Shown: piece by piece, positions 1,316 to 2,689 of the stretch
Position numbering within the stretch: position 1 is the stretch's first letter
How the letters are laid out: every line of letters begins with the position of its first letter
Source of the DNA: Escherichia coli
GTDB lineage: Bacteria; Pseudomonadota; Gammaproteobacteria; Enterobacterales; Enterobacteriaceae
NCBI RefSeq assembly: GCF_003334815.1
Contig: NZ_QOWO01000076.1
Reading direction: 5' to 3' (one strand)
DNA: 4,596 nt
Translations under genes and position numbers: made by a program
Notes under the pieces: generated by a model
What the model saw: only the letters and a program-made list of their open reading frames with translations
Database searches by the model: none
What the model was told of the DNA's origin: nothing

Positions 1316-2689
1316 TTATTTCAACGCTTCCGGCAGCGTCACAATCCACAGTTCACTGTCAGACTCCGGTTTCTCCAGTGGCTTCACTCTGAGGGTCGTT
1401 TCAACCTGCTTGTCGTCAAGCGTCAGCTTTCCTTCCGCGTTCACCCGATAATCCTTGAATGTCTTGCCCTCGACCGGATGTTGCATCGCCACCTTCACGC
1501 CAAAGTCGTTATCGTTCGCCACCGCCAGCGTTTTGCTGTCGATCAGCGCCAACCCTTCAGCCTTCTCCTGCTGCCAGCCCAAGGAGCGCAGATCAACAAC
1601 CTGCGTTTTCTGCGCAAGGGTAATGCCGCGCTGTGACAGGGTTTTCTCATCATCAAACTCCGGATACTCACCCGGCTTGTCGAAGCCTGACAGGTCGCTC
1701 GCCTTATTGAGATCGACCTCGTAAATCAGGTTACGCATTCTGTTGTTTTTATCTCTTCCCTGTTCGATCAGCAGGATGTGCTGGTTATCGAGCGCCACGA
1801 TGTCTCCGATTTTAGCGTCGCTGTTTTTGCTGTAGGCCGCGCTGTCGATAGGATAACCGTACATCGCGGTTTTTCCGCTTGCCGGATCGAAGCTCACCAG
1901 ACGCGTAAACAGCGCCTTTTTCTTGCTCTTAGCGTCGATATCCAGCGTACTTTGCACGGCGACAATAATACGCCCGTCCGGCATACGGGTGAGGCCTTCA
2001 AAGCCGCGGTTCGCCTGACGCCATTTGAGGATATTTGGCAAACCGCCCGCAATCGCTTTTTCCCCTTCCGCCGCCTGCGGACCGTGGATTGCCAGGATTT
2101 TCCCTTTACTGTCGATGTTAATCAGGAACGGGCCATACTCATCGCACAGCCAGTAACCTCCTTTACCATCCGGAGTGATCCCTTCCGTATCCAGCCCGCG
2201 ATTATCCCCCTTCAGTCTATGTAACGTGTCGCTGAAGGCCACTTCATTGGTGGAGCCAATCACGTCGCTTGCCAGCGGCAGACCGTTGATCGCGCCTTTA
2301 TCGTCATGCAGAGGACGGGGATCGATGGCCTCCGCTTTGCCGTTTTGTACACGAATCGTCATCAGCAGCGGCGCGAAATCTGGCGTAACGAAAATTTTAG
2401 TTTCGTTTTTCCCCTCTTTCGGTGAATCCGCGTTCGGACCGCGATCGGTAATGGTTGCGAATGTCAGGGCATCGCCCTGTTTACCGGTGAACAGCAGGCC
2501 AGAACCTATCCCAACCGGAAGGCCGTTCGGGAATGCACTGGCAAATGCGCCGGCGTAGTTCACGTGCGTGCCTTCTGGAAAACTGACGACATAGCGCTCA
2601 GCCGTAGGTTGTGCCGCCAGGGCAGAGAAAGAGAGCGTACAACCGATTAGCACGGGAATAATTTTTCTTTTCATATTGTTAGCATCCAT
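1316..2689 (-). CDS. Secreted/periplasmic phytase-like family protein (esterase-like activity of phytase type, putative beta-propeller hydrolase)
   Basis: A 457-aa uninterrupted ORF. The N-terminus has a Sec-type signal peptide (MKRKIIPVLIGCTLSFSALA|AQP) that also contains a possible lipobox (LIG-C). The mature part is Gly/Asp-rich with repeated D-x-EG-type motifs (GLDTEGITPDG, GFEGLTRMPDG) as I recall for phytase-like domains. The true start may be the second ATG at 2674 (MKRK...); neither ATG has a strong Shine-Dalgarno sequence. The CDS call is firm; the functional family is from motif recognition only. Confidence 0.8.
   Translation of the reverse strand: MDANNMKRKIIPVLIGCTLSFSALAAQPTAERYVVSFPEGTHVNYAGAFASAFPNGLPVGIGSGLLFTGKQGDALTFATITDRGPNADSPKEGKNETKIFVTPDFAPLLMTIRVQNGKAEAIDPRPLHDDKGAINGLPLASDVIGSTNEVAFSDTLHRLKGDNRGLDTEGITPDGKGGYWLCDEYGPFLINIDSKGKILAIHGPQAAEGEKAIAGGLPNILKWRQANRGFEGLTRMPDGRIIVAVQSTLDIDAKSKKKALFTRLVSFDPASGKTAMYGYPIDSAAYSKNSDAKIGDIVALDNQHILLIEQGRDKNNRMRNLIYEVDLNKASDLSGFDKPGEYPEFDDEKTLSQRGITLAQKTQVVDLRSLGWQQEKAEGLALIDSKTLAVANDNDFGVKVAMQHPVEGKTFKDYRVNAEGKLTLDDKQVETTLRVKPLEKPESDSELWIVTLPEALK

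Follow-up and report, generated by a model that had tools for sequence, protein, structure and literature searches.

The closest described counterpart of the locus considered here is the SRL pathogenicity island, in which the gene that concerns us is orf34 and an IS66 element is represented by orf35–orf37 (PMC6980539). Its product belongs to the family PF13449, members of which are induced by phosphorus limitation in cyanobacteria (PMC9846622; PMC11020310). PhoX, Psip1 and the beta-propeller phytase of Bacillus are also exported proteins linked to phosphate starvation, and have a propeller fold on whose axis metals are presumably bound by acidic residues (PMC11098088). Literature searches turned up PF13449 or 'phytase-like' proteins only at the level of annotation, and no measured activity for any member, and sequence and profile searches found neither a characterized member of the family nor a solved structure, much as a first-pass annotation of this DNA had supposed in calling such proteins poorly characterized; 'phytase-like' is merely a Pfam name, and as such a prediction.

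The DNA analysed (hereafter the window) is a stretch of 4,596 nucleotides from an Escherichia coli contig (NZ_QOWO01000076.1). The gene and its arrangement are already known from the SRL pathogenicity island (orf34 to orf37), and as a sequence feature the gene is nothing unusual, being accessory, already annotated and part of a known island, beside an iron-uptake operon. What is new in this analysis is the conserved Pho-box signature of the orthologue promoters, which, as far as sequence can indicate, points to a phosphate-starvation-induced periplasmic phosphoesterase. This gives a cheaply testable hypothesis for a family thousands strong that lies behind a conserved Pho box across the Enterobacterales; if true, bacterial phosphorus scavenging would gain an enzyme class, and there would be a reason for the retention of the gene on a fitness island.

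The gene and its island

The longest ORF of the window (1316..2689, minus strand, 457 aa) is intact, and its RefSeq protein is WP_000823243.1. The conserved start is the ATG at 2674, and this is likely to be the true one because Enterobacter has ACT or CAA in place of the upstream ATG at 2689. The PF13449 'phytase-like' CDS, as supported by RefSeq, Pfam, the start comparison, dN/dS and an AlphaFold2 model, accordingly occupies 1316..2674 on the minus strand and specifies 452 aa.

On one side of the gene is the 3' part of an IS66-family element (1..1114, plus strand; match to the IS66 transposase NCBIfam NF033517, E 3.3e-95), whose tnpC ORF ends at 1077 and whose right inverted repeat is at 1093–1114. 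The end at 1114 had been recognized in the first-pass annotation, but as debris, whereas the element is complete: it is 2289 bp long, with tnpA, tnpB and tnpC intact in the RefSeq locus L001 (inverted repeats at 13751–13772 and 16018–16039), and it is the edge of the window that cuts through it. On the other side, the IS629/IS3 scar first noticed beside 2955 proved to be a 174-bp IS3-family (IS1203/IS629-like) 3' fragment (2956..3129, plus strand), made up of the end of a transposase gene (annotated as partial at 2956–3087 in RefSeq) and the right inverted repeat. It is 95–96% identical to copies of IS1203, which we take to be an isoform of IS629. The distances from the gene are 201 bp to the IS66 end and about 266–281 bp to the scar, in good agreement with the first estimate of about 200–270 bp. 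Two simple origins for this arrangement were rejected: a composite transposon, with a complete IS66 at one end and only a 174-bp IS1203-like fragment at the other, and a simple IS insertion, since the 8-mers flanking IS66 (AAATAGTG and TTTTGTTC) differ and thus form no target-site duplication.

The non-IS segment that separates the two IS ends is 1.84 kb long (1115..2955), and only 1313–2829 of it aligns with Enterobacter DNA (83–86.5% nucleotide identity to orthologue loci over 1311–2829 by blastn). Next to IS66, and cut by its end, is a remnant of the C-terminal end of a DUF6404-family gene (1117..1194, plus strand), which RefSeq annotates on an identical stretch of plasmid pB27_2 (L089, 6802–6879) and which has no counterpart beside the gene in any of 80 orthologue loci. 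The phytase-like gene had been thought to be the sole intact cargo, and it is indeed intact, but a second intact small gene, encoding a 97-aa protein of the YmgB/AriR family, occupies 3425–3718 in the next inter-IS segment. (In a Pantoea locus the orthologue has YmgB genes at a distance of about 7 kb, a likeness to the ariR-like gene of the window that we treat as coincidence.)

The gene is accessory in E. coli, as had been proposed, and not core: it is carried by 2262 of 5426 complete genomes (about 42%), all copies being at least 99% identical in nucleotide sequence, and is absent from the K-12 fec locus, between IS1F and yjhU, so this is not a case of a conserved core gene with insertion sequences merely nearby. 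In strain 7/2 and in APEC O78 (RefSeq) the gene order is Ag43, YfjI/Gp2 genes, IS66, orf34 and the fec operon, in agreement with the SRL island as described (Table 2 of PMC6980539). We see no essential difference from the SRL island of Shigella flexneri YSH6000, and regard the window as part of an E. coli version of this island family. There are also 66 E. coli placements of the gene on plasmids, where alternative IS contexts are found (overall, the IS or plasmid contexts number at least three); plasmid p1 (L090), for instance, shares 1294–2952 and then runs into different DNA.

The best foreign match is to Enterobacter or Lelliottia (90–91% amino acid and 86.5% nucleotide identity; the gene has 54.2% GC, with GC3 of 63%), and the homology to Enterobacter extends to 2829, implying that the gene arrived with at least 155 bp of its original upstream sequence. 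On this comparison, the gene appears to have come from an Enterobacter-like donor with its own promoter. The idea that insertion sequences had mobilized the gene or altered its expression context can therefore be kept only in part: the gene is bracketed by them, and by others on plasmids, but its promoter was not replaced. In the neighbourhoods of 79 orthologue loci there is no conserved partner gene, the commonest neighbour (yjiA) being found in 18, all of the Enterobacter-type context, and because no neighbour is conserved the operon context gives no clue to function or substrate.

The protein and its export signal

The match to PF13449 extends over residues 60–396 (E 7.5e-43, 147.9 bits, model positions 4–284 of 284), and this is the sole Pfam domain of the protein with an independent E of 10 or less, so that the initial reading as phytase-like, rather than as a member of some unrelated family, was upheld. 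Protein database searches show the domain to be common to thousands of homologues. NCBIfam, PADLOC and a PDB sequence search gave no match for the protein. A dense set of Asp, Glu, Arg and Lys residues is almost unchanged throughout the family, and long homologues have PF13449 in fusion with 5'-nucleotidase, metallophosphoesterase and ParB-like nuclease domains.

As had been pointed out, the N-terminus contains both LIGC and ALA↓AQ, motifs that would direct cleavage by different signal peptidases, and it had been left undecided whether the protein is periplasmic or a lipoprotein. The predicted signal peptide, residues 1–20 (MKRKIIPVLIGCTLSFSALA; 2615..2674, minus strand), is laid out as MKRK / IIPVLIGCTLSFS / ALA↓AQ. 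It conforms to the rules for a signal peptidase I substrate (a positive n-region, then a hydrophobic core of about 12–16 residues, with small side chains at −3 and −1), and conservation agrees: all 23 aligned sequences have Ala at −1, position −3 is occupied by A, S, T, V, G or N, and the same pattern was seen in a sample drawn from the 112 full-length homologues. The leader contains no twin-arginine motif. The predicted structural model is ordered from residue 24, three residues past the putative signal peptidase I site.

If instead signal peptidase II cut at LIG↓C, the Cys would be acylated and the protein anchored in the membrane. The lipobox-like core is real: LIGC matches the four-residue pattern [LVI][ASTVI][GAS]C, equivalent motifs (VIGC, VVGC, LISC) are found in Enterobacter and Pantoea orthologues, and initiation at ATG 2689 would make the Cys residue 17. 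With the conserved start, however, it is residue 12, only seven uncharged residues after KRK (K, R and K being at −10 to −8 relative to the Cys), whereas a lipoprotein would be expected to have its Cys at positions 15–35 after an uncharged stretch, and to keep it in orthologues. A Cys at residue 12 after KRK fails the length and charge rule of PROSITE PS51257. Moreover, a leader Cys of any kind is present in only 47 of 112 full-length orthologues; where LIGC has its Cys, Scandinavium, Pseudescherichia, Serratia and Cronobacter have S, T or A, and orthologues at 81% identity already have S or T, whereas the downstream hydrophobic stretch and A-x-A site are retained in all orthologues. The orthologue comparison thus favours signal peptidase I and the periplasm, and we consider a lipoprotein very unlikely.

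Pho boxes in the orthologue promoters

A generic sigma-70 scan detected no promoter, and no −35/−10 pair, in 1080–3000, but this carries no weight, since a promoter activated by PhoB, with a Pho box replacing the −35 sequence, would give none either. A Pho box is found at just this position in the orthologues, ending 43–62 nt upstream of the ATG. With a weight matrix built from 59 ChIP-seq PhoB sites (PMC10294691), 80 of 85 orthologue promoters, from phylogenetically related loci, scored at least 10 bits, against 3.6% of controls, and their median of 15.0 bits equals that of PhoB-bound sites. Matches to the consensus at 14 or more of the 18 positions were present in 69 of 86 orthologue promoters, compared with 0.18% of random windows and 1.2% of other promoters; as the loci share ancestry, these counts do not represent independent events. 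Among the boxes there are more than 50 distinct 18-mers, in which the two GTCA cores are kept while the spacers vary. The Enterobacter box (TGTCATTTTTCTGACACG) is almost identical to that of the PhoB-activated ugpB (TGTCATCTTTCTGACACC), differing at 2 of 18 positions, and, like the E. coli ugpB, phoA and pstS promoters, those of the orthologues have a pair of TGTCA-type repeats 11 bp apart and then, about 10 nt further on, a TAnnnT −10 hexamer. PhoB induction is therefore most likely in the native hosts, given that the Pho box occupies the place of the −35 sequence.

We rejected a reading of the palindrome TGTCA-N6-TGACA as a CRP-type site, as the TGTCA repeats of Pantoea, Serratia and others are direct and form no palindrome. 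The CRP consensus is TGTGA-N6-TCACA, from which TGTCA-N6-TGACA departs at critical G/C positions.

In the window, the positional homologue of these strong Pho boxes is the Pho-box-like element ATGTCATTTTCCTGACTC (2725..2742, minus strand); 10 nt downstream a −10-like hexamer, TATGGT, can be read from the sequence (2709..2714, minus strand), at a position equivalent to that of the TAnnnT hexamer of the orthologues. The element is weakened by an A-to-T change at 2726, which makes the second repeat TGACTC. It scores 6.1 bits, compared with 13.0 bits for a minority TGACAC allele and 14.6 bits for Enterobacter, and in this it is unlike E. coli PhoB-activated promoters, its score being below those of all 59 known, ChIP-confirmed PhoB sites and matched by 17% of control promoters. 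With so low a score, PhoB control of the window's own copy is doubtful. The weakened version is present in 2161 of 2272 E. coli records (95%), and the natural promoter alleles, with A or T at 2726, constitute a ready-made experiment on PhoB dependence. K-12 has no copy at its fec locus, and the table of PhoB sites from the ChIP study of K-12 (PMC10294691) has no site for the gene. Upstream of the promoter is a perfect palindrome, GTTGTTA-TTTG-TAACAAC (2790..2807), which is not conserved in Enterobacter.

Predicted fold, possible function and retention in E. coli

The AlphaFold2 model (pLDDT 95.5) predicts a propeller with five blades, its closest structural matches being YjiK, glutaminyl cyclases and a calcium-activated nucleotidase. 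Sequence identity to the nearest solved structures is only 11–17%. Foldseek against the PDB returned just low-TM generic propellers, and against AFDB50 only unnamed family members; a PDB profile search gave only generic NHL-type blade similarity (to designed 'Pizza' propellers) and YjiK. The C-terminal domain of E. coli YjiK (PDB 3qqz; SdiA-regulated family PF06977) has 17% identity at a profile E of 0.28, and differs in having neither the 100–147 insertion nor the C-terminal extension of the phytase-like protein, while human soluble calcium-activated nucleotidase (SCAN/CANT1, PDB 2h2n), at 13% identity, has no detectable sequence relationship to it. PhoX, Psip1 and the Bacillus phytase resemble the protein in export, propeller class, a Pho-box tie and acidic residues presumed to hold metals; they differ in being six-bladed, in belonging to other sequence families and in being absent from the best structural matches, and metal use and activity have been measured for them but are only deduced here.

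One possibility is that the protein is a true phytase, dephosphorylating myo-inositol hexakisphosphate in a Ca2+-dependent manner like the Bacillus beta-propeller phytases, with feed phytate as a substrate for gut or poultry strains. It is so named in Pfam and RefSeq, a Pantoea orthologue has been listed among 'phytase encoding sequences' in genome announcements (PMC12697123), a 'phytase family protein' was linked to chicken E. coli in a small GWAS (PMC12987596), and Pho-box control would be consistent with such a role. However, the protein does not match PF02333, the HMM for beta-propeller phytases of the Bacillus PhyC/TS-Phy type, and its predicted five-bladed propeller is unrelated to the six-bladed fold of that type, so identity with the Bacillus type was rejected; a regular-expression search also failed to find the active-site motif RHGXRXP of histidine acid phosphatase phytases (AppA type). 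We regard a true phytase as quite improbable.

Counting against any phosphoesterase is the fact that the nearest solved folds (the YjiK domain and glutaminyl cyclase) are non-phosphoesterases. The protein might therefore be a periplasmic propeller of another kind (a lactonase, cyclase, lyase or binding protein), in which case Pho control would reflect envelope remodelling or some other starvation response. The low identity to those neighbours weakens this argument, and phosphate chemistry is favoured by the dense set of Asp, Glu, Arg and Lys residues that scarcely vary, by the Pho box, by the induction of family members under phosphorus limitation and by the nucleotidase and nuclease fusions; a role outside phosphoester hydrolysis seems unlikely to us. 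Phosphoesterase chemistry is nevertheless something that we infer purely by argument.

Taking the evidence as a whole, we think it fairly probable that the gene encodes an exported propeller acting as a PhoB-driven phosphoesterase, and that it is present on the E. coli island as an Enterobacter-like allele. The protein would be exported by Sec and cut by signal peptidase I after Ala20 (ALA↓AQP), to give a mature periplasmic PF13449 protein of about 47 kDa, comprising a five-bladed beta-propeller into which a subdomain is inserted and which is extended at the C-terminus, and would act as a metal-dependent (probably Ca2+) phosphoesterase, freeing phosphate from a periplasmic organic phosphate compound. 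A stand-alone chromosomal gene specifies it in the hosts to which it is native (Enterobacter, Pantoea, Serratia, Buttiauxella, Pectobacterium and others), and this gene would be switched on by PhoB, through the Pho box in place of a −35 sequence, when phosphate is scarce. It seems that E. coli gained one Enterobacter-like allele, with its own promoter, on a fragment of about 1.8 kb, and that IS-mediated rearrangements set this fragment between the IS66 element and the IS1203/IS629-like scar in an island of the SRL/fec type, giving the order Ag43 ... IS66, orf34, IS scars, ariR-like gene, IS1, fecIRABCDE. It would then have spread with the island, and now and then on plasmids, the point change in the second Pho-box half-site probably weakening PhoB control in 95% of E. 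coli copies. More tentatively, and with rather less confidence, we suggest that PF13449 proteins of about 450 residues may form an unrecognized class of five-bladed, PhoB-controlled periplasmic phosphoesterases, of which the allele of the E. coli fec/Ag43 island has been partly uncoupled by promoter mutation.

Alternatively, the gene may be a silent passenger in E. coli, having hitch-hiked on the fec/Ag43 island while its promoter decayed, so that the intact ORF would reflect recent spread and not selection. The prevalence of the weakened Pho box fits this idea, as do the position of the gene amid IS scars and gene remnants and the presence of truncated variants of the protein in databases, and the near-identity of the E. 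coli copies makes them uninformative about selection within the species. Against it, comparison with Enterobacter and Lelliottia orthologues reveals purifying selection (dN/dS 0.08–0.11), although values of about 0.1 against such outgroups mostly record history before the transfer. We think a purely passive role a minor possibility, as the ORF has stayed intact in about 2200 genomes and across its several IS and plasmid contexts.

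The phytase-like gene and its island setting

The longest ORF in the window occupies 1316..2689 on the minus strand (457 codons). Its true start codon is most likely the one at 2674, because, in an alignment of upstream regions, Enterobacter shares ATG 2674 and a GGA some 10 nt ahead of it but has ACT or CAA at the position of ATG 2689. The product has a single Pfam domain, PF13449 (residues 60-396, E 7.5e-43), which agrees with its initial placing in a phytase-like hydrolase family; it gave no match in NCBIfam, PADLOC or a PDB sequence search. Many of its distant homologues in the 630-700 aa class (P0152-P0261) begin with some 200 extra residues, unmatched in Pfam, ahead of the PF13449 domain.

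On one side of the gene lies the 3' part of an IS66-family element (1-1114; NF033517, E 3.3e-95). This had been taken for debris, mistakenly: in a full genome (L001 13751-16039) the element is complete at 2289 bp, with tnpA, tnpB and tnpC intact. Its 22-nt inverted repeats are imperfect, the right one ending at 1114, and the 8-mers beside it (AAATAGTG on the left, TTTTGTTC on the right) do not match. There is no 8-bp target-site duplication, so the present junction is a rearrangement and not a simple insertion. The IS66 end truncates a DUF6404-family gene, whose tail (1117-1194, plus strand; annotated on an identical plasmid stretch) is convergent with the phytase-like gene. At the gene's other flank stands a partial IS3-family transposase (RefSeq annotation, starting at 2956); the IS3-family fragment (2956-3129, its inverted repeat ending at 3129) is 95-96% identical to IS1203 copies. 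The IS66 repeat end and the start of this fragment bear out the IS ends first noted at 1114 and 2955, and their distances from the gene.

The wider gene order is Ag43, GTPase, YfjI, Gp2-like genes, IS66, phytase-like gene, IS3 and IS5 scars, a YmgB/AriR-family gene, further IS scars, IS1, ykiE and fecIRABCDE; E. coli chromosomes are 99.9% identical to the entire window. The Shigella SRL island was reportedly first described by Luck et al. in 2001, as cited in later work. It has the same layout, with the phytase-like gene as orf34 and the IS66 genes as orf35-37 (PMC6980539, Table 2), so the arrangement has been on record since that description. SRL orf34 is identical with our gene and belongs to PF13449. 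We have little hesitation over the identity and context of the gene: it is an ordinary accessory gene, already catalogued, in a known island. The observation in the first-pass annotation is confirmed and its interpretation largely supported; added here are a corrected start codon, a resolved export type, a predicted five-bladed fold, a probable Enterobacter-like origin, and a family-wide Pho box that appears weakened in most E. coli copies.

The YmgB/AriR-family gene (a biofilm/acid-resistance regulator of 97 aa, intact, 3425-3718, minus strand) lies in a very AT-rich stretch (GC 32%), bracketed by 42-nt direct repeats (3127-3168 and 4320-4361, 93% identical). Each repeat adjoins IS fragments, and the gene resembles a further small cargo module lying between remnants of ISs. 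An IS1 copy (4430-4596) closes the window.

Distribution and likely origin

Of 5426 complete E. coli genomes, 2262 carry the phytase-like gene, each at a nucleotide identity of at least 99%; 66 of the places are on plasmids. In 1435 genomes at least 80% of the entire window is present. In K-12, fecI-ykiE-IS1F is followed by yjhU, and the phytase-like gene is absent there. The IS1F there (L092 10473-11240) corresponds in position to the window's IS1, and the whole phytase-like/ariR-like segment lies beyond an IS1 junction that varies among strains. Other arrangements are found on two plasmids. On pB27_2 the same module lies between IS1 copies, and on p1 of Br_112_kylling (207 kb, with colicin genes; L090 5740-9470) IS1414 has inserted 22 bp past the stop codon of a copy 98-99% identical. 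Plasmid p1 has no IS3 scar, its upstream DNA continuing uninterrupted past window position 2952 into two hypothetical genes, and this context may be older than the island version. The gene is thus accessory and IS-shuffled, as first proposed.

In many other Enterobacterales the gene is chromosomal, and the Enterobacter orthologue lies near yjiA-yjiX-btsT, without ISs. Amino acid identity is 85-91% to orthologues in Enterobacter/Lelliottia, 77-82% in Pantoea/Mixta/Chimaeribacter, 60-66% in Buttiauxella/Cedecea/Serratia/Yersinia/Pectobacterium, and about 50% in Wohlfahrtiimonas, Tolumonas and a Neisseriaceae MAG. The gene's GC content (54.2%; GC3 63%) is above the E. coli average of about 51%, and dN/dS against Enterobacter and Lelliottia is 0.08-0.11. 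DNA homology to Enterobacter is limited to 1311-2829, so the transferred piece brought with it 155 bp or more of its native upstream sequence. The earlier suggestion of IS influence therefore holds for the shuffling of the gene and not for its promoter, which is its own. This putative Enterobacter-like origin, with the native promoter kept, is new to the present analysis. The best sampled donor candidates reach only 86.5% identity, and none of the sampled orthologue loci (80 species representatives) has a DUF6404-family neighbour, so the true donor lineage lies outside these representatives.

Two database records stand apart. A contig filed as 'uncultured Ruminococcaceae' MAG (L009, CAJKJS010000287.1) is 99% identical to the E. 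coli island segment, and on one filed as 'Chryseobacterium sp. 18061' (L036, CACSKA010000015.1) is an orthologue of ordinary enterobacterial type (78% aa). Contamination during binning or assembly is the probable explanation for both.

Export and predicted fold

The leader reads MKRK-IIPVLIGCTLSFS-ALA/AQPTAE (the slash marking the predicted cleavage site). Motif rules, orthologue conservation and a structure model together make Sec export, with cleavage by signal peptidase I, very probable, and the predicted location is the periplasm. In a 23-sequence alignment Ala occupies -1 throughout, and position -3 is taken by A, S, T, V, G or N; the ordered part of the model begins at residue 24, three residues past the predicted cleavage site, and the leader has no twin-arginine motif. 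Of the two processing sites originally proposed, ALA/AQ is thereby supported. The other, LIG-C, would make the protein a lipoprotein, which is most improbable: in Scandinavium, Pseudescherichia, Serratia and Cronobacter an S, T or A stands in place of the Cys, a leader Cys of any kind is present in only 47 of 112 full-length homologues, and the Cys of LIG-C, counted from the conserved start, is residue 12, after KRK and seven uncharged residues, too short a stretch by the usual lipobox rules.

The AlphaFold2 model, built on a 61-sequence alignment (mean pLDDT 95.5, pTM 0.91), matched only generic propellers in the PDB by Foldseek, and only unnamed family members in AFDB50. By strand pattern the predicted fold has five blades, an inserted subdomain (about residues 100-147) and a C-terminal extension. 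One strand per blade starts at or directly after a near-invariant polar residue (S58, E164, E226, D291 and E373), and there are many further invariant Asp, Glu, Arg and Lys residues; the pattern would suit a metal-dependent active site on the propeller axis. We would put phosphoesterase chemistry at about even odds. The neighbouring genes of orthologues give no clue to substrate, and we found no biochemical study of any PF13449 member in the literature.

A five-bladed fold would make 'phytase' a misnomer. Membership of the Bacillus beta-propeller phytases is ruled out by the lack of a PF02333 match and the different predicted blade number, and membership of the histidine acid phosphatases by the absence of an RHGXRXP motif. 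PhoX, Psip1 and the beta-propeller phytases are separate families, although there may be a likeness in mode, that of an exported, starvation-induced propeller phosphoesterase.

A Pho box in orthologue promoters and its probable weakening in most E. coli copies

The one new lead here is a Pho box conserved across the family and seemingly weakened in most E. coli copies. Alignment of upstream regions revealed that the element ATGTCATTTT(C/T)CTGAC(A/T)C is conserved, with a TAnnnT hexamer 10 nt downstream. At the corresponding position nearly all orthologue loci of other species have a pair of TGTCA-type repeats spaced 11 bp apart, as in Franconibacter (CTGTCATTAATCTGTCAC). At least 14 of the 18 positions of the classical consensus CTGTCATAWAWCTGTCAY are matched in 69 of 86 orthologue promoters (loci related by descent, and so not independent events), compared with 0.18% of random 150-nt windows and 1.2% of 419 promoters of other long ORFs in the same loci. 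With a weight matrix from 59 PhoB ChIP-seq sites of E. coli K-12 (PMC10294691), the median best score of orthologue promoters equals that of the bound sites (15.0 bits), and 80 of 85 reach at least 10 bits, as against 3.6% of controls. The ATG follows 43-62 nt after the end of the box, and more than 50 distinct 18-mers are represented, in which the two cores are kept and the spacers vary; the Enterobacter box (TGTCATTTTTCTGACACG) differs at only two positions from the PhoB-activated ugpB box (TGTCATCTTTCTGACACC). Despite the shared descent of the loci, a box conserved amid diverged flanks and at a fixed distance makes a clear footprint.

Phosphorus limitation induces PF13449 proteins or genes in Nodularia and Synechococcus (PMC9846622, PMC11020310), and in some cyanobacteria a 'phytase-like' domain is fused to a Psip1 phosphatase domain (PMC11098088). 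In a few distant homologues PF13449 is fused to choice-of-anchor I, 5'-nucleotidase/metallophosphoesterase, ParB-like nuclease or S-layer homology domains; the nucleotidase, metallophosphoesterase and nuclease fusions, which occur in long homologues, provide supporting context for a Pho link, as do the cyanobacterial induction and the Psip1 fusion. It seems likely from the promoter comparisons that PhoB control was ancestral in the orthologue family.

For the window's own allele such control is possible but doubtful. Its element (2725-2742, minus strand), with TGACTC as second repeat, scores 6.1 bits, below every known PhoB site in the matrix set and no better than 17% of control promoters. 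A minority E. coli allele, TGACAC (a change at 2726), scores 13.0 bits. By exact match, the TGACTC version is found in 2161 of 2272 E. coli records and the TGACAC version in 21, among them plasmid pB27_2 and several isolates from bird, dog and panda. The common allele appears to be derived, because Enterobacter outgroups carry TGACAC, and its response to PhoB is probably reduced.

A perfect 7-4-7 palindrome, GTTGTTA-TTTG-TAACAAC (2790-2807), is nested in a longer imperfect one some 48 nt upstream of the Pho-box-like element. Enterobacter promoters lack this palindrome, which may serve as an operator or may have been the terminator of an upstream gene since lost.
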